Shown piece after piece: positions 8,545-64,000 of a stretch of DNA of 64,000 bases. The stretch is taken from the NCBI RefSeq assembly GCF_003790525.1, contig NZ_CP033635.1; one strand, 5' to 3'. The position numbers and the translations under genes were made by a program. The notes beneath the pieces are model-generated. The model did no database searches. It was given only the letters and a program-made list of their open reading frames with translations, and was not told the DNA's origin. Position 1 is the first letter of the stretch. Each line of letters opens with the position of its first letter. This stretch comes from Escherichia coli. Lineage in GTDB: Bacteria > Pseudomonadota > Gammaproteobacteria > Enterobacterales > Enterobacteriaceae.

Positions 8545-10787
<2,243 letters not shown>

Positions 10788-11650: not shown

Positions 11651-13078
11651 CTAGCGCGACTGCTGATTATATTCATCATCGCGTTGATAAGCTTCATCAT
11701 TCGGCTGCTCCGGAACCGACCGCAGTCGATACTCTTCATCCTGGCTCACCGCTTGTTCAGCCAAATCCGGATTAATCTCGCGTTTAATTTCTACCCCTAA
11801 ACCGCGAAACGCTTCTGCCTGCGCCAGCACATTTCCGCGACCTGAAGAGAGTTTTTTCATTGCCTGGCGGTAGTTATCCTGCGCTTTGTCGAGACTTTGA
11901 CCAATCGCTGACATGTCATCGACGAACAAACGCATCTTGTCGTACAGCTTGCTGGCACGATCGGCGATTTGCTGGGCGTTGCGGCTTTGATGCTCATAAC
12001 GCCACAGGTTGGCGATAGTGCGCAGCGCCACCAGCAGCGTAGTCGGGCTAACCAGCATGATATTGTTTTTCAACGCTTCGGTGATCAGCTCCGGCTGGCG
12101 GTCAAGCGCCAGTAAAAAAGCGGGTTCAACGGGAATAAACATCAGAACGTAATCCAGGGTTCGCAGCCCCGGCAGCTGTTGATAATCTTTGCGTCCCAGC
12201 AAACGGATATGGTTACGCACCGACGCGATATGTTCCTGTAGCGCGCTTTCGCGGGTGTAGTCATCTTCGGCGTTGAAATAGCGTTCATAGGCGACCAGCG
12301 TCATTTTGGCGTCGATCACCACATCTTTTCCCTGCGGCAACCGCACGATGACATCCGGCTGCATCCGCGAGCGGGCGTCATTTTCGATGCTGACCTGGGT
12401 TTCATATTCATACCCTTCACGCAGACCGGAAGCCTCCAGCACCCGCGTCAATACTACCTCGCCCCAGTTGCCCTGGGTTTTATTGTCGCCTTTCAGCGCA
12501 CGCGTCAGGTTGATCGCTTCCTGGGCCATCTGGGCGTTGAGTTGCTGGAGGTTGCGGATTTCGTGAGTCAGGGTATGACGTTCTTGGGCTTCTTTACCAA
12601 AGCTGTCCTGGACCTGACGGCGGAAACCGTCCAGTTGTTCACGTAGCGGCGACAACAGGCTGTTCAGGCTCTGACGGTTTTGCTCATCAACCCGGCGATT
12701 GCTGTGCTCAAAAATACGGTTGGCGAGGTTTTCAAACTGCTCACTGAGGCGCTGCTCGCTGTTAATCATCTGGCGAATTTTATCGTCAGCATGTTGCTGT
12801 GCAGCTTCCATCCGCGTGGTTACTTCACGCAGATCGGCCTCCAGAGAGGTGTTAATACTTTGCAGGCTGCGCACTTCGTTATTGAGTAACTCGCACTCAG
12901 CGCGCCAGTGCTCGCTTTGAGTAATTTGTTGTTTTGCCGCGCTTAACTCCGCGACCATCTCTTCACGTTCAGCTAATTGCTCGGCTTTTTGCTGCGCATG
13001 TTGATAACTGGCAAACAGCCAGCCAATTGCCACACCCACCAATGCAATAACTGCGTAAACCATGATTGAGAAATCCAC
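11651..13078 (-). CDS. rmuC: DNA recombination protein RmuC
   Basis: 475 aa, N-terminal TM segment plus long coiled-coil. Confidence 0.9.
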   Translation of the reverse strand: MDFSIMVYAVIALVGVAIGWLFASYQHAQQKAEQLAEREEMVAELSAAKQQITQSEHWRAECELLNNEVRSLQSINTSLEADLREVTTRMEAAQQHADDKIRQMINSEQRLSEQFENLANRIFEHSNRRVDEQNRQSLNSLLSPLREQLDGFRRQVQDSFGKEAQERHTLTHEIRNLQQLNAQMAQEAINLTRALKGDNKTQGNWGEVVLTRVLEASGLREGYEYETQVSIENDARSRMQPDVIVRLPQGKDVVIDAKMTLVAYERYFNAEDDYTRESALQEHIASVRNHIRLLGRKDYQQLPGLRTLDYVLMFIPVEPAFLLALDRQPELITEALKNNIMLVSPTTLLVALRTIANLWRYEHQSRNAQQIADRASKLYDKMRLFVDDMSAIGQSLDKAQDNYRQAMKKLSSGRGNVLAQAEAFRGLGVEIKREINPDLAEQAVSQDEEYRLRSVPEQPNDEAYQRDDEYNQQSR

Positions 13079-13198
13079 AACGCCTCCTGACGCAACAACT
13101 TACCCGCACAAAATAGAATTGTGCTGTACAAACGTCCAGTTTGAAAGAAGTTTCCTGCGAGGCGCTACGCAAAACGATCGTTAATTTTCATTATTTTA

Positions 13199-13232
13199 TC
13201 CCACAATATGAGATGGAGTTTATATTGTGGGA
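13199..13232. promoter_or_regulatory. Perfect 11-bp inverted repeat TCCCACAATAT-N12-ATATTGTGGGA, candidate operator in the rmuC / IclR-gene divergent region
   Basis: Palindrome read directly in sequence, ~60 bp upstream of the IclR-family start. Confidence 0.5.
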
Positions 13233-13294
13233 TATATCACCTTTTCCCCACGTCATTATGTGGAACACTTCAGCAATATCATCAGGAGAAACGT

Positions 13295-14062
13295 ATGGCA
13301 GAAACCTCTTCAACCACCGCAGGCGCACAAACGTTATTACGTGGACTGGCGGTTCTTAATGCTGTTTATAACGGCTGCCATGACCTAAAAAGTATCGGCG
13401 AGTTCACCGGCACGACCCGGAGCACAACCCATCGTTTAGTCACCGTTCTGGTGGAACAACGCTACCTGCGCCATGTCCCAACGCAGGGCTACCAACTGGG
13501 TGCCAAACTGATCGAATTCGGTGCCAGAGCACTGGAAAGCACCTCGCTGTACGAAATTGCCCAGCCCGTTTTGCAACGCCTTGCCCGTTACACCCTGGAC
13601 ACCGTGCATCTGGGGATCGTTGAAGGCGACGAAGTGCTGTATCTGGAGAAGATCAACAGTCAGCGCGGGCTGGAAATGCGCTCACGCCCAGGCCATCGCA
13701 TGCCACTGGCAATCACCGGCATCGGCAAAGCATTGATACTCAACCGAACAGAAGAAGAGTGGCGCACGCTGTTTAAGACCTGTGGTGATGAAACAAAACT
13801 GGGCGCATTTATTCAGAACATGCGTCGTTATGCCGCCAGTGGTTTTGCTTTTGATCTGGAAGAGAACGAGCCGACTATCCGTTGCGTTGCAGCGCCGGTT
13901 TACAACGCCCGGGATGAAATTGTGGCGGCTATTTCTGTCGCCAGTACCACCACGTATATGTCGCTGGCGCGTCTGGAAGAACTGGCACCTTACGTCAAAT
14001 CCTGTGCAGAAGAGATATCCGCTGAACTGGGCTGGGGTAAGCACGTCCGCAAAGATAAATAA
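13295..14062 (+). CDS. IclR-family transcriptional regulator
   Basis: N-terminal wHTH region (LRGLAVLNAV...) and C-terminal effector domain; start chosen at MAETSST (the six-frame ORF extends from 13208). Confidence 0.75.
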   Translation: MAETSSTTAGAQTLLRGLAVLNAVYNGCHDLKSIGEFTGTTRSTTHRLVTVLVEQRYLRHVPTQGYQLGAKLIEFGARALESTSLYEIAQPVLQRLARYTLDTVHLGIVEGDEVLYLEKINSQRGLEMRSRPGHRMPLAITGIGKALILNRTEEEWRTLFKTCGDETKLGAFIQNMRRYAASGFAFDLEENEPTIRCVAAPVYNARDEIVAAISVASTTTYMSLARLEELAPYVKSCAEEISAELGWGKHVRKDK

Positions 14063-14085
14063 ACCATGATTAAAGGAAACGACTA

Positions 14086-15090
14086 ATGCCGGGAGCACCC
14101 TCATTTATTGCCCTGGACTGGGGAACGTCATCGCTTCGGGCATGGCGTTTTGGCGAATCACCAAATCCACAAGAAAAACGTGAATTCCCCTGGGGGATCA
14201 TGAAATTACCCTCCCAGGCAGCAACACGTGAGGACGCTTTCCACGATACGTTTTTACGTGTCTGCGGCGACTGGCTGGCACAAACCCCATGCCCGGTACT
14301 GGCTTGCGGCATGCTCGGCAGTGCGCAAGGGTGGCAACCAGCAGCTTATTTACCTTGCCCGGTCACTCTCGAGGGTCTGGCGAAGCAGTTGACGCCAGTT
14401 ATCCACCAGCAGCAGACAATGCTGCACATCATTCCTGGCGTGATTAAAGAAGGTGAAATGCCCGAAGTGATGCGTGGCGAAGAGACACAAATCTTCGGTG
14501 CTATCTCGATGGAACCGGCCCTGCAAAACGCGATCCATCAGGGTATGCCAGTGCTGATAGGCTTACCCGGCACACATGCGAAATGGGCAGTAGTTGAAAA
14601 CAACACCATTACCGATTTCCGAACCTTTATGACGGGCGAGTTATTTGATGTTTTATCCCGCCATTCGATTCTCGGTGCCACCATGCATCCTGGAGATGAA
14701 CCGCACTGGGATGCCTTCACCCACGGGCTGACAGCAGCACAAGAGCATCATCAGACCGGATTATTATCGACGCTGTTTTCGACCCGTTCGCGCCTGCTGA
14801 CCAGTAATCTTACGTCGTCCTCGCAGGGGGATTACCTTTCCGGATTACTGATAGGCCATGAATTATGCGGTCTGGCATCCAGTTTGCTACGTGATTTACC
14901 CGCCACAACACCGATCGCCTTAATCGGTAGCGCAAATCTGAACAGCCGCTATTCACAAGCATTCAGCCACGTTTTTCCCGACAGACAGATACACGCCATT
15001 CCTAATGCCACTGAACAGGGATTATGGCGAATCGCCCACGCTGCCGGGTTACTGTCCACCAACGCCAGGGAATGTACCCATGCCATTTAA
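14086..15090 (+). CDS. 2-dehydro-3-deoxygalactonokinase-like (DgoK-family) sugar-acid kinase
   Basis: Motifs IALDWGTSSLRAW, VMRGEETQIFGA, PGTHAKW, DFRTFMTGELF, LSGLLIG resemble DgoK; RBS aggaaa upstream. Confidence 0.7.
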   Translation: MPGAPSFIALDWGTSSLRAWRFGESPNPQEKREFPWGIMKLPSQAATREDAFHDTFLRVCGDWLAQTPCPVLACGMLGSAQGWQPAAYLPCPVTLEGLAKQLTPVIHQQQTMLHIIPGVIKEGEMPEVMRGEETQIFGAISMEPALQNAIHQGMPVLIGLPGTHAKWAVVENNTITDFRTFMTGELFDVLSRHSILGATMHPGDEPHWDAFTHGLTAAQEHHQTGLLSTLFSTRSRLLTSNLTSSSQGDYLSGLLIGHELCGLASSLLRDLPATTPIALIGSANLNSRYSQAFSHVFPDRQIHAIPNATEQGLWRIAHAAGLLSTNARECTHAI

Positions 15091-31402: not shown

Positions 31403-31519
31403 TATATGCCCCTTATGGAATTTTTAGTATTTAGCCGTCCAGATGTTTACACATCCATAATTGGCGGTTACTGTATATTCCTCAAGCGCAAATTATTCAT
31501 GCCGAAGTGAAGGACTTTC
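31403..31519. promoter_or_regulatory. metE/metR divergent promoter region with candidate MetJ/MetR sites (CCAGATGTTTACACATCC)
   Basis: Met-box-like octamer pair seen in sequence; known regulatory arrangement in E. coli. Confidence 0.4.
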
Positions 31520-44894: not shown

Positions 44895-45797
44895 ATGAAA
44901 AAAAGGCTCGCAACGTTATTTTTATTAACGTGTCTGGGATCATCATCCGCCTATGCGGATAACGCTTTGATTTTACAAACTGATTTTAGCCTGAAAGATG
45001 GTGCCGTCTCGGCGATGAAAGGGGTCGCATTCGGCGTTGACCATAATCTTAAAATCTTTGATTTAACACACGAAATTCCACCGTATAACATCTGGGAAGG
45101 CGCTTATCGCCTGTATCAGACTGCCAGTTACTGGCCGCAAGGTTCGGTGTTTGTTAGCGTGGTCGATCCGGGCGTAGGCACTGACCGTAAATCGGTAGTG
45201 CTGAAAACCAAAAACGGTCAATACTTCGTTTCACCAGATAACGGTACGCTCACTTTGGTGGCACAAACTCTGGGTATTGATAGCGTCCGAGAAATCGACG
45301 AAAAAGCTAACCGCCTGAAAGGTTCTGAAAAGTCATATACCTTCCACGGTCGTGACGTGTATGCCTACACCGGTGCGCGTCTGGCTTCCGGGGCGATTAC
45401 GTTCGAACAGGTGGGGCCAGAGCTTCCTGCAAAAGTTGTCGAACTTTCTTATCAGAAAGCAAAAGCAACAAAAGGTGAAGTGAAGGGCAATATCCCGATT
45501 CTCGATATTCAGTACGGCAACGTCTGGAGCAATATCAGCGACGAGTTGCTGAATCAGGCAGGAATCAAACTCAACGACACGTTGTGTGTGACCATTTCCG
45601 AAGGTTCCCAGCAAAAATACGCAGGGAAAATGCCATATGTCGCAAGCTTCGGCGATGTGCCGGAAGGCCAGCCGATGGTGTATCTGAACAGCTTATTGAA
45701 TGTTTCCGTGGCGCTGAATATGGATAATTTTGCGCAGAAACATCAGGTTGCGTCTGGTGCTGACTGGAATATTGATGTGAAGAAGTGCGCTAAGTAA
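44895..45797 (+). CDS. SAM hydrolase / SAM-hydroxide adenosyltransferase-like protein (DUF62 fold) with N-terminal signal peptide
   Basis: Signal peptide MKKRLATLFLLTCLGSSSAYA; VFVSVVDPGVGTDR matches the DPGVGT motif of the fluorinase/chlorinase/SAM-hydrolase family. Confidence 0.6.
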   Translation: MKKRLATLFLLTCLGSSSAYADNALILQTDFSLKDGAVSAMKGVAFGVDHNLKIFDLTHEIPPYNIWEGAYRLYQTASYWPQGSVFVSVVDPGVGTDRKSVVLKTKNGQYFVSPDNGTLTLVAQTLGIDSVREIDEKANRLKGSEKSYTFHGRDVYAYTGARLASGAITFEQVGPELPAKVVELSYQKAKATKGEVKGNIPILDIQYGNVWSNISDELLNQAGIKLNDTLCVTISEGSQQKYAGKMPYVASFGDVPEGQPMVYLNSLLNVSVALNMDNFAQKHQVASGADWNIDVKKCAK

Positions 45798-45851: not shown

Positions 45852-48014
45852 TTACACCGTCTCCAGTCGGGCATAAGCCGCCACCAGCCATTTAATACCC
45901 TGGCCCTGGAATGCCACCTGCAAACGGCTATGCTCGCCGCTGCCTTCCATATTGACGATGGTGCCTTCACCAAACTTAGCGTGGCGTACGCGCTGGCCGA
46001 GCTTGTAGCCGCTGTCGTTCTCGACCATCGGCGTACCCATCCGTTGATGGCTGACCGGGCGGCTTACCGTAGCGCGCAGGCGCACCTCTTCCACACACTC
46101 TTCCGGCAACTCACCGATAAAGCGCGACGGGCGATGGTAAACCTCTTTGCCATACAGACGGCGAGTTTCCGCGTAGGTCAGCGTCAGTTTCTGCATCGCG
46201 CGGGTTACGCCAACGTAGGCCAGACGGCGTTCTTCTTCCAGACGTCCGCCTTCATCCAGCGACATCTGGCTTGGGAACATGCCCTCTTCCATACCAACGA
46301 TAAACACCTGCGGGAACTCCAGGCCTTTCGCCGAGTGTAGCGTCATCAACTGCACCGCGTCCTGCCAGGTATCCGCCTGCCCCTCGCCCGCTTCCAGCGC
46401 CGCATGGGAGAGGAATGCCTGCAGCGGCATTAAATCTTCGTCTTCTTCGTTGTAGCTGAACTGGCGCGTTGCCGTCACCAGTTCCTCCAGGTTTTCGATA
46501 CGCGTCTGACCTTTTTCGCCCTTCTCCTGCTCGTACATGGTGCGCAAGCCGGAGTCTTTAATTACCCGGTCAGTCTGTACATGCAGCGGCATATCGGCAG
46601 TTTCCTGCGCTAAGGCGTCGATCAGCTCCATAAACCGCTGTAAGGCACTGGCAGCACGTCCGGCGAGGGCTTTTTCCTGCAACAGTTCACGACATGCCTG
46701 CCAGAGTGTTAACTGGCGATCACGCGATGTCTGACGTACCACGTCCAGCGTCCGGTCACCAATACCCCGCGTTGGTGTATTCACCACGCGCTCAAAGGCC
46801 GCGTCGTCATTACGGTTGGCAATCAGGCGCAGATACGAGAGCGCATCTTTGATTTCCTGGCGTTCGAAGAATCGCATCCCGCCGTAAATACGGTACGGCA
46901 TACTTGCCTGTAACAGTGCTTCTTCCAGCACACGCGACTGGGCGTTGCTGCGGTAGAGAATGGCGCACTCGGCAAGCGCCCCGCCGTTGTCCTGCCAGGT
47001 TTTGATACGGTTAACCACAAAACGCGCTTCATCGAGTTCGTTAAAAGCGCAATAGAGGGAAATAGGCTCACCATCCGCGCCATCGGTCCACAGTTTTTTA
47101 CCCAAACGCCCGTTGTTGTTTTCAATCAGGGCGTTCGCGGCGCTCAGAATATTGCTGGTAGAGCGGTAGTTCTGCTCCAGACGGATAGTTTCAGCACCGG
47201 GGAAATCATTGAGGAAACGCTGAATATTCTCCACCTGCGCTCCGCGCCAGCCGTAGATTGACTGATCGTCATCGCCAACGATCATCACTTTGCCGGTATC
47301 GCCCGCCAGCAGGCGGATCCACGCATACTGAATGTTGTTGGTATCCTGGAATTCGTCCACCAGGATATTGGTAAACCGTTCGCGATAGTGCTGAAGGATA
47401 TGCGGCTTGTTAAGCCACAACTCGTGAGCACGTAGCAGCAGCTCGGCGAAGTCCACCAGCCCCGCGCGGTCACACGCTTCCTGATACGCCTGATACACCT
47501 TCTGCCAGGTCTGCTCCACCGGATTACCGTAGCTTTGAATATGATGTGGACGCAGGCCTTCATCTTTCTGGCTGTTGATGTACCACATTGCCTGGCGCGG
47601 CGGCCACTGCTTCTCGTCGAGGTTCATCGCCTTGATTAGGCGTTTGAGCAGGCGTAGCTGGTCCTCGCTGTCGAGGATCTGAAAATCCTGCGGCAGATTG
47701 GCGTCCATATGGTGCGCACGCAGCAGACGGTGCGCCAGCCCGTGGAAGGTGCCGACCCACATGCCGCCCTGGCTGGTGCCCATCAGCTGCCCGATACGAT
47801 GACGCATCTCCGCCGCCGCTTTGTTGGTAAACGTTACCGCCATAATCGAGTATGGCGAGCAGTTTTCCACGCTCATCAGCCAGGCGATACGATGCACCAG
47901 TACGCGCGTCTTACCACTGCCCGCGCCCGCCAGCACCAGAAGGTTGCTGCGTGGCGCGGCCACCGCTTCGCGCTGTTTGTCATTAAGGCTGTCGAGCAGG
48001 TAAGAAACGTCCAT
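45852..48014 (-). CDS. uvrD: DNA helicase II UvrD
   Basis: MDVSYLLDSLNDKQREAVAAPRSNLLVLAGAGSGKTRVLVHRIAWL...; 720 aa from that start (the six-frame ORF runs 62 codons further upstream without a stop). Confidence 0.95.
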   Translation of the reverse strand: MDVSYLLDSLNDKQREAVAAPRSNLLVLAGAGSGKTRVLVHRIAWLMSVENCSPYSIMAVTFTNKAAAEMRHRIGQLMGTSQGGMWVGTFHGLAHRLLRAHHMDANLPQDFQILDSEDQLRLLKRLIKAMNLDEKQWPPRQAMWYINSQKDEGLRPHHIQSYGNPVEQTWQKVYQAYQEACDRAGLVDFAELLLRAHELWLNKPHILQHYRERFTNILVDEFQDTNNIQYAWIRLLAGDTGKVMIVGDDDQSIYGWRGAQVENIQRFLNDFPGAETIRLEQNYRSTSNILSAANALIENNNGRLGKKLWTDGADGEPISLYCAFNELDEARFVVNRIKTWQDNGGALAECAILYRSNAQSRVLEEALLQASMPYRIYGGMRFFERQEIKDALSYLRLIANRNDDAAFERVVNTPTRGIGDRTLDVVRQTSRDRQLTLWQACRELLQEKALAGRAASALQRFMELIDALAQETADMPLHVQTDRVIKDSGLRTMYEQEKGEKGQTRIENLEELVTATRQFSYNEEDEDLMPLQAFLSHAALEAGEGQADTWQDAVQLMTLHSAKGLEFPQVFIVGMEEGMFPSQMSLDEGGRLEEERRLAYVGVTRAMQKLTLTYAETRRLYGKEVYHRPSRFIGELPEECVEEVRLRATVSRPVSHQRMGTPMVENDSGYKLGQRVRHAKFGEGTIVNMEGSGEHSRLQVAFQGQGIKWLVAAYARLETV

Positions 48015-48072
48015 TGGCACCGCCGCGTAAAAATAGGTTGGGCGGAGAAGCGCAACGCCCTCCGCCAAAAAG

Positions 48073-48088
48073 CTGGGTATATATACAG
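48073..48088 (-). promoter_or_regulatory. LexA (SOS) box CTGTATATATACCCAG upstream of uvrD
   Basis: Reverse complement of CTGGGTATATATACAG on the + strand; matches the CTGT-N8-ACAG consensus. Confidence 0.8.
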
Positions 48089-48097
48089 ATTTGCTGA

Positions 48098-48814
48098 TTA
48101 TATCAGCGAGGTCAGAGATGCCAACCGGGAAATTTCCAGATGCGGGAGTAAACGGCTGTCCCAGGTTTGCATCAGATCGCCATTTTCCGGTCTGATCCAA
48201 CAGGCCTGCATTCCGCTGCGAATTGCCCCACCCACGTCAGTGGTGAGATCGTCCCCGACATGTAAGATCTCGCCGATCGGCACGTTGAGTTTTTCCGCCG
48301 CCAGGAAGTACATATCGCTGAACGGTTTTGAGCGCCCGTGCGGGCCAGCGCGCAACACAAACTCAAAATAATCCCCTAAACCAAACAGCTCCGGCTGGGC
48401 GTTACCGTTGGTGATCGCCACCAGCGGCCATTTCTTCGCCAGCTGTTTTAAGGTGTCGTGGGTTTGCTGCGGGACATCGATTCGGCTGCGCCATTTGGCA
48501 AAGTTGATCATTGCTGCGTGTGCGCCTGCACTGGCTTCTTCGGCACTCAGCCCGGCGTCGAGCATGGCTTGTTCAATCGAACGAAAACGCCAGCGCGTCA
48601 CGTCGTGATAAATCTCGGGTTCCGCTTCCCGTACCGCCTGGCGCAGGCGTTGCAGATCTTCATTCTGGAAGCTGCGCAGCGCCGGATGATAATTTTGCAC
48701 AAAGGTAAGCGCCTCTCGCTCGGTGCGCAAAATCACCGGACGGTTATCGTAAAGGGTATCATCCAGGTCAAAGGTGAGCGCCGAGATGCGCCCCAAAGGC
48801 CGGTAAAAACGCAT
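48098..48814 (-). CDS. yigB: HAD-family phosphatase YigB (5-amino-6-(5-phospho-D-ribitylamino)uracil phosphatase)
   Basis: 238 aa, HAD motifs ([21 protein letters not shown]). Confidence 0.9.
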
Positions 48815-59377: not shown

Positions 59378-59584
59378 AAAAAAACGCCTGCTCTTATTAC
59401 GGAGCAGGCGTTAAAACAGGTCTGTATGACAACAAGTGGGTGCTTCACTCAACGTTGTGTCCATGGTGTCTGATGAGGCATAAGCGACATCTGTCAGTGG
59501 ACGATAAGCACCGTAAACGGCTCTGCGTCATTCCGGAGTTTATGAGGCACTAAGGCGAACATAAGAGATGGAATGAGCATCTAC
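59378..59584 (-). ncRNA. glmZ: Small regulatory RNA GlmZ (SraJ/RyiA), regulator of glmS
   Basis: Minus-strand sequence GUAGAUGCUCAUUCCAUCUCUUAUGUUCGCC...CGCCUGCUCCGUAAUAAGAGCAGGCG-U7 matches my memory of GlmZ, including the intrinsic terminator; lies in the expected hemY-aslA intergenic region. Confidence 0.8.
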
Positions 59585-63188: not shown

Positions 63189-63265
63189 TGGTCGGCGAGA
63201 GAGGATTCGAACCTCCGACCCACTGGTCCCAAACCAGTTGCGCTACCAAGCTGCGCTACTCGCCG
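63189..63265 (-). tRNA. proM: tRNA-Pro (anticodon UGG)
   Basis: 77-nt cloverleaf on the minus strand ending CCA; anticodon loop uuUGGga; T-arm GGTTCGAATCC. Confidence 0.9.
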
Positions 63266-63306
63266 AAATACTGCTTTTTGAATTTTTAGTTCAATTCTTT
63301 AAAGTC

Positions 63307-63394
63307 GTGGTGCGAGGGGGGGGACTTGAACCCCCACGTCCGTAAGGACACTAACACCTGAAGCTAGCGCGTCTACCAATTCCGCCACCTTCGC
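63307..63394 (-). tRNA. leuT: tRNA-Leu (anticodon CAG), long variable arm
   Basis: Minus strand GCGAAGGTGGCGGAATTGGTAGACGCGCTAGCTTCAGGTGTTAG...CACCA; boundaries +/-1 nt. Confidence 0.9.
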
Positions 63395-63414
63395 ATTGTC
63401 ACAACTTCTAATAA

Positions 63415-63491
63415 TGGGGTGGCTAATGGGATTCGAACCCACGACAACTGGAATCACAATCCAGGGCTCTACCAACTGAGCTATAGCCACC
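63415..63491 (-). tRNA. hisR: tRNA-His (anticodon GUG) with extra 5' G(-1)
   Basis: Minus strand GGTGGCTATAGCTCAGTTGGTAGAGCCCTGGATTGTGATTCCAG...CCCCA. Confidence 0.9.
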
Positions 63492-63548
63492 ACTACAAAT
63501 CTTGTTACGCGGTATTACTACCACCGCAGCTCAAGCGCCGGGACTAAA

Positions 63549-63625
<77 letters not shown>

Positions 63626-63727
63626 TTAGCGCCGTTGCGGGGGTGGATAATACGGACTTCCCACCCCTCTGTCTAGTCCCTTTTTAAATAAATTGCGCGT
63701 TTGGTTACGGTTTGTGCGTTTTGCTGC

Positions 63728-64000
63728 TTATTCCTCCAGTTTATGCGCTTTACCGTGGCGATTAAGCCCAAAAATTTTATAAATCGCCGTCACCGCCAGC
63801 ATAAAGATGATGCCGACAAACAGCGACATACGCGTATCTTCATTAAAGTACATGCCGATCAAAACGCAAATCAGGAATGCCATTGTTACGTAGTTGGCCC
63901 ACGGGAACAGGATTGAGCGGAACGGATGGCTGGCAATCGCCGCTTTATGCGCACGACGAAAACGCAGCTGGCTTATCAATATCACAAACCATGGCACCAT
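63728..64000 (-). CDS. yifK: Amino-acid permease YifK (APC family), 3' end only; gene continues beyond the window
   Basis: C-terminal TM segment and tail (...[18 protein letters not shown]); reading frame open to the window edge. Confidence 0.75.

Follow-up and report, generated by a model that had tools for sequence, protein, structure and literature searches.

The LexA operator between yigB and uvrD in an Escherichia coli genome and the start codon of uvrD

The open reading frame of Escherichia coli uvrD can be read 62 codons further upstream than the protein that begins with MDVSYLL, and in doing so it passes through a 16-bp palindrome with the look of a LexA operator. The locus thus raises two questions, namely whether this palindrome is an operator of uvrD or a chance feature of the DNA around it, and whether translation of uvrD begins downstream or upstream of it. 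We addressed both in a 64-kb stretch of E. coli DNA (64,000 nucleotides, called the window throughout). An earlier note on this DNA had placed a canonical LexA box at 48073-48088, in the 83-bp gap between yigB and uvrD, and its coordinates and all of its numbers are correct. We are nearly certain that the 16-mer is the known LexA operator (SOS box) of the E. coli uvrD promoter; the uvrD SOS box at this locus is thus already known, and nothing about its presence here is new.

The operator and the promoter of uvrD

The two genes belong to the series dapF-yigA-xerC-yigB-uvrD, which lies on one strand with ORFs that overlap or are closely spaced in the RefSeq annotations of both SMS-3-5 and K-12 MG1655. 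The features that frame the box are the following.

48098..48814, minus strand: yigB coding sequence, 238 aa (ORF list and RefSeq), with its stop codon TAA at 48100..48098
45852..48014, minus strand: uvrD coding sequence, DNA helicase II, 720 aa, with its ATG at 48014..48012 (MDVSYLL)
48015..48097: gap between yigB and uvrD, 83 bp
48088..48073, minus strand (the uvrD strand): core of the LexA operator (SOS box), CTGTATATATACCCAG, an exact match that is unique in the window
48071..48090, minus strand: 20-mer of the LexA site, ATCTGTATATATACCCAGCT

On the far side of uvrD, between it and yigE, a 300-aa ORF on the plus strand (44895..45797) carries the SMS-3-5 annotation 'SAM hydrolase/SAM-dependent halogenase family protein'. 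In K-12 this site is without a gene, and yigE comes directly after uvrD.

The core CTGTATATATACCCAG occurs as a single exact copy in the 64-kb window, where none is expected (100 shuffles); the plus strand reads CTGGGTATATATACAG over 48073..48088, its reverse complement. Both CTG and CAG are intact and stand 10 bp apart in a 16-bp palindromic frame. The CTG-N10-CAG pattern has little meaning by itself, and its 25 copies in the window (14.2 expected) are what would favour reading the box as a chance palindrome in AT-rich intergenic DNA without a regulatory role. The spacer of the uvrD box is A or T at 8 of 10 positions, the highest value among the 25 matches and one reached by no other copy. 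Against the consensus TACTG(TA)5CAGTA the box agrees at 14 of 20 positions, and at 14 of 16 within the core. Its left half is perfect (CTGTATAT), and its right half (CCCAG) is poor.

For scoring, 17 published boxes of E. coli other than that of uvrD (table in PMC3009722) were made into a 20-bp LexA matrix. The uvrD box scores 16.3 bits and is the best site in the window, which bears out the motif scan that the earlier note had proposed as a check. Known boxes of the weaker kind score 13.1 (polB), 17.0 (dinB) and 18.2 bits (ftsK) with the same matrix, and the uvrD box falls within that range. A site of at least 16.3 bits also turned up somewhere in 14 of 300 random 64-kb sequences (first-order Markov), or about 5% of such windows, which lends the chance reading some support; the best chance site per random window averages 11.9 bits. 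The matrix score alone is thus modest evidence, suggestive and not conclusive. What settles the identification is the position of the box, its conservation across species and its identity to the published site.

Three lower-ranked matrix sites lie elsewhere in the window. The second-best, at 13122..13141 on the minus strand (AACTGGACGTTTGTACAGCA, 14.6 bits), is another SOS box and precedes the GTG of rmuC (yigN) at 13078 by 43 nt; rmuC is a published LexA-regulated gene. Divergent from rmuC, on the plus strand from 13208 to 15090 and beyond, lie genes for an IclR-family regulator and then for a 2-dehydro-3-deoxygalactonokinase and an aldolase. A query of 12900..13400 is covered to at least 80% in only 1456 of 5425 E. 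coli genomes, so the divergent neighbour of rmuC is accessory, and K-12 differs here. The other two sites are at chance level and probably noise: one, at 31469..31488 in the metR-metE gap, scores 12.3 bits and has a single good half-site, and the other, at 63722..63741, scores 12.1 bits just upstream of a tRNA cluster. This cluster of four tRNA genes (63192..63625) is matched by Rfam at gathering score on the minus strand, as are the small RNAs EsrE ('Erse', 10182..10433) and GlmZ (59378..59584); all three are known E. coli features.

The table of LexA boxes upstream of UV-induced genes in PMC3009722 gives AAATCTGTATATATACCCAGCTTTT as the uvrD motif, and the box in the window is identical to this entry letter for letter, the outcome that the earlier note had anticipated for a comparison with the annotated site. 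Table 1 of PMC11228462 lists uvrD as a classical SOS gene with a heterology index (HI) of 8.5, an AZT induction of 2.1-fold and a lexA dependence of 1.7-fold. The uvrD promoter is classed as 'early' in PMC5999292, with a peak 35-38 min after UV at all doses, and Salmonella uvrD has one LexA box (HI 11.48) and a basal expression that is LexA-independent (PMC8072944). Culyba et al. 2018, searched for an operator position, yielded none. By its published HI of 8.5 the E. coli uvrD operator is weak to middling, so the description of the box as canonical holds for its invariant CTG and CAG and its perfect left half and does not extend to its weak right half, CCCAG. Functional LexA operators in general have a heterology index below about 13-15.

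The conservation of the box was followed in a survey of one genome per species, in which DNA encoding LNDKQREAV (UvrD residues 10-18) was located at 120 loci or more. The comparison set comprises 81 of these, all gammaproteobacterial and with an MD.S..L.. N-terminus, 80 of which have 200 nt of upstream sequence; the loci listed do not include Salmonella or Klebsiella. A box was called in a relative when a site of at least 12 bits lay within 200 nt upstream of the conserved Met. By this measure a LexA-like site stands upstream of uvrD in 60 of the 80 gammaproteobacterial loci listed. Coding control segments from the same loci gave 0 of 74 and 0 of 69 (0 of 143 in total), and shuffled upstream regions gave 7 of 1600. 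The shuffles are the fairer control, because coding segments differ from intergenic DNA in base composition. T4, G5 and C16 do not vary across the 60 sites listed, and A17 is kept in 59 of them and G18 in 58. Most Shewanella and Marinomonas uvrD upstream regions listed lack a LexA-like site, and so do the listed Firmicutes and Bacteroidetes matches of the LNDKQREAV scan, as expected since LexA recognises other motifs in those two phyla.

A chance palindrome thus has next to no probability here: despite the abundance of the loose pattern and the occasional equal score in random sequence, the site has the very sequence of the published uvrD SOS box, has counterparts in this position in 60 of 80 relatives listed as opposed to 7 of 1600 shuffles, and precedes a gene whose expression has a published lexA dependence. 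A target on the plus strand was also weighed, since the box is palindromic. The sole ORF there on that strand, 47709..48371, runs antisense to uvrD and yigB, has no annotation in the genomes examined and was set aside.

The gene that the operator would regulate has a predicted promoter immediately next to it, with these elements.

48119..48124, minus strand: predicted uvrD -35, TTGGCA, within yigB codons (CGG TTG GCA)
48097..48105, minus strand: predicted extended -10, TGATATAAT, with TATAAT at 48102..48097
about 48090, minus strand: probable transcription start (A), placed 7 nt past the -10 by promoter geometry

These form a predicted sigma-70 promoter with a 16-nt spacer, a TG-extended -10 and an 11/12 match to consensus, and it is the one promoter-like site, on the minus strand, that a promoter scan of 47800..48400 returned. 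Both hexamers lie within the 3' end of yigB, whose stop codon (TAA, 48100..48098) is inside the -10 hexamer. The box abuts this promoter, itself defined by its consensus match: its CTG comes about 8-9 nt after the predicted -10, and the 20-bp LexA site would cover about +1 to +20, inside the footprint of RNA polymerase.

The arrangement recurs in relatives. In most Enterobacterales, Vibrionales and Pasteurellales loci listed a perfect TATAAT precedes the CTG of the box by 1-13 nt; many vibrios, like E. coli and E. albertii, have a spacing of 8 nt. Enterobacterales among the loci listed also conserve a -35 (TTGGCA, TTGGCT or TTGGAT), and most of them share the overlap of the yigB stop codon with the -10. 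The module of a yigB stop codon within a predicted -10, followed by a LexA box, is thus widely conserved in Enterobacterales, with a simpler form in Vibrionales and Pasteurellales.

Within the species, the 801 bases around the box match 5425 of 5426 complete E. coli genomes, with yigB and uvrD as the features under the match, and are 100% identical to SMS-3-5, APEC O2-211 and others; 47990..48140 is identical to E. coli K-12. An identity of at least 99% is reached by the 121 nt that hold promoter, operator and leader (48010..48130) in 5401 of 5425 E. coli genomes, and by the 801-nt stretch with its coding flanks in only 570 of 5425. The regulatory stretch is thus more conserved than the codons that adjoin it.

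The start codon of uvrD

Where translation of uvrD begins decides whether the operator lies in front of the gene or inside it. The longest six-frame ORF runs from 48200 to 45852 and encodes 782 aa, 62 codons more than the 720-aa protein, as the earlier note had stated, with the Met of MDVSYLL as its residue 63. The note had taken the position of the box as support for the MDVSYLL start; its conclusion is right, although an operator within an ORF does not alone exclude an upstream start. Two features bear on the choice.

48015..48200, minus strand: 62-codon 5' extension of the six-frame ORF, beginning with a TTG at 48200
48018..48024, minus strand: Shine-Dalgarno-like GGCGGTG, a 6/7 match to GGAGGTG, ending 3 nt before the ATG (CCA between)

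In RefSeq, uvrD has 2163 nt and 720 aa counted from this ATG and lies 83 nt beyond yigB, in both K-12 MG1655 (b3813) and SMS-3-5. PDB chains 2IS1 and 3LFU likewise have this Met as residue 1, with 100% identity over the 100 aa compared; PDB chain starts follow annotation and are not independent proof of the MDVSYLL start. The N-terminal peptide of UvrD expected from the ATG at 48014 is (M)DVSYLLDSLNDK, and the upstream extension would encode FLAEGVALLRPTYFYAAVP.

Translation from the TTG at 48200, or from another upstream in-frame start, would place the box inside the coding sequence. The open frame itself speaks for this, with its 62 codons in E. coli and 85 in E. albertii, and so does the presence of in-frame TTG and GTG codons in the leader. 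The extension, however, overlaps the last 34 codons of yigB in a different frame, and its TTG lies upstream of both the predicted uvrD promoter and the probable 5' end of the mRNA (about 48090). Nor is the frame kept open in relatives. Read upstream from the conserved Met, the frame stays open for a median of 11 codons over the 81 loci listed (range 0-85); it is closed after 0-5 codons in 25 of the 81, and long upstream open frames are found among them only in E. albertii (85) and Erwinia endophytica (69). An in-frame stop at or after the start of the box is present in 45 of the 60 box-bearing loci listed, so that an ORF through the operator is impossible there.

What is conserved instead is the start at MDVSYLL. 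Its Met opens an MD.S..L.. N-terminus directly before LNDKQREAV in the 81 gammaproteobacterial loci listed, and the sequence before the ATG, (G)GCGGTGCC(A/T)ATG or ACGGTGCYTATG (also given as ACGGTGCYT), is conserved across Enterobacterales among the loci listed. Two codons ahead of the ATG, as part of the Shine-Dalgarno-like element, stands an in-frame GTG, which is GTA in Photorhabdus, Xenorhabdus, Proteus and Arsenophonus. The TTG and GTG codons of the leader were rejected as starts; they are not conserved as start codons among the relatives listed. Taken with the RefSeq annotation, the conserved Met and Shine-Dalgarno-like element and the closed upstream frame in relatives listed leave an upstream start with hardly any probability. 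Translation of uvrD begins at the MDVSYLL ATG, as the earlier note had proposed, and the 62-codon extension is a chance open frame that overlaps yigB and is not part of uvrD. Both a textbook operator and the correct start of uvrD had thus been recognised from raw sequence. The lesson for annotation is that the longest ORF makes uvrD 62 codons too long and carries it across the gene's own operator and promoter into yigB.

The leader and a model for control

Between the probable transcription start and the uvrD ATG lie 76 nt of leader, in which the box is followed by CTTTTT, a hairpin, CAACCTA, T5, ACGC, GGCGGTG, CCA and the ATG. Two of these elements bear on attenuation.

48041..48066, minus strand: leader hairpin GGCGGAGGGCGTTGCGCTTCTCCGCC, a candidate attenuator, GC-rich, with a predicted fold of -17.1 kcal/mol
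48029..48033, minus strand: T5 run, starting 7 nt after the stem (CAACCTA TTTTT)

Folded as a whole, the 88-nt leader does no better than its shuffles (z = +0.6). In these predictions only the local hairpin, at -17.1 kcal/mol, is notable, and folding energies by themselves give no support for a structured leader. Nor does the hairpin qualify as a canonical intrinsic terminator: such terminators have a U-tract 0-2 nt after the stem, and here the T-run is displaced by 7 nt, and a terminator scan did not call the hairpin. That scan returned no terminator-like site on the minus strand within 47800..48400; its only site, at 47951..47976 on the plus strand, is antisense inside uvrD, at chance level, and was discarded. 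In 1983 Easton and Kushner reportedly described control of uvrD by lexA and attenuation, as the title of their paper has it and as the paper is cited for, and they are said to have mapped the uvrD promoter and shown partial termination in the leader. The hairpin and its displaced T-run match the attenuation reported in that year.

Leaders of relatives are another matter. Most relatives listed have a leader that differs from that of E. coli or is much shorter, and among the loci listed only E. albertii and Citrobacter werkmanii have a homologous hairpin. In Superficieibacter electus an unrelated hairpin is followed by a long T-run, TTTTTTGTTTTT, and resembles a canonical terminator; Edwardsiella ictaluri has a hairpin and then TTTTT, unrelated to the E. 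coli one; and the 110-nt leader of Pseudocitrobacter faecalis carries a REP-like, strongly folding insert (-50 kcal/mol). Short leaders without a hairpin are found in Pantoea, Rosenbergiella, Budvicia, Proteus, vibrios and Pasteurellaceae. These comparisons suggest that the LexA switch is conserved and that the attenuator was added to it in particular lineages. A bolder reading, which we offer as speculation more likely wrong than right, is that the leader is a variable slot into which unrelated hairpins were inserted independently (the E. coli attenuator, the Superficieibacter terminator, the Pseudocitrobacter REP-like insert), so that attenuation would have evolved repeatedly as an accessory of a LexA switch that is itself fixed, and that bound LexA may also block read-through from xerC-yigB.

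In the model that we favour, uvrD would be transcribed from a sigma-70 promoter of its own, which lies within the final codons of yigB. A LexA dimer on the box would cover roughly +1 to +20 and block a productive RNA polymerase complex, as judged from the geometry of the site and established knowledge of LexA. After DNA damage, RecA-stimulated self-cleavage of LexA would free the promoter. The weak right half-site CCCAG and the HI of 8.5 suggest that repression would be leaky, which would give substantial basal expression of uvrD and an early induction of only about 2-fold. A leaky operator fits a housekeeping helicase that is needed in mismatch and excision repair without SOS induction. Transcripts would then cross the 76-nt leader, where the hairpin and the displaced T-run may attenuate them, and translation would start at the MDVSYLL ATG behind the conserved Shine-Dalgarno-like GGCGGTG.

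LexA could instead act mainly as a roadblock to read-through from dapF-yigA-xerC-yigB, with the leader hairpin as the terminator of that unit. The overlapping or tightly spaced ORFs of the five genes on one strand would suit such a role, as would the lack of a terminator-like minus-strand site in the scanned region, the yigB-uvrD gap included; the hairpin of the uvrD leader is the first to follow the yigB stop codon. A near-consensus promoter nevertheless stands at the box and is conserved with it, which is the standard arrangement for promoter occlusion, and many of the relatives listed that keep the box have no such hairpin. We consider a mainly roadblocking LexA improbable. Roadblocking is a possible extra role of the bound repressor, one that adds to promoter occlusion more than it competes with it.

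Comparison with known systems

The gain from this analysis is small and descriptive: the arrangement of yigB stop codon, -10 and LexA box is widely conserved, and the leader is lineage-specific. The site is the same as the E. coli uvrD SOS box of Easton and Kushner (1983) and of later tables of classical SOS genes, with promoter, operator and leader identical to those of K-12. There is no difference between the two; the strain of the window is not K-12, and this stretch is unchanged in it.

Like the operators of recA, sulA, umuDC, lexA, uvrA and uvrB, the uvrD box has the CTG-N10-CAG form with a (TA)n spacer and overlaps the promoter or start site. It is weaker than those of recA, sulA and umuDC (HI 8.5 as against 2-5; PMC11228462) because its right half is CCCAG. 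It further differs from other E. coli LexA operators in that uvrD has a single box, downstream of the -10, and an induction of only about 2-fold. The rmuC (yigN) box resembles it as a weak single LexA box, with a published HI of 8.8, and differs in belonging to another gene and in having a less A/T-rich spacer (ACGTTTGTAC). The leader, for its part, resembles leader attenuators and intrinsic terminators in having a GC-rich hairpin and then T5, here between the uvrD promoter and the start codon. It departs from intrinsic terminators in its T-run, which stands 7 nt off, in its irregular loop and stem, and in being conserved only in the closest relatives listed.
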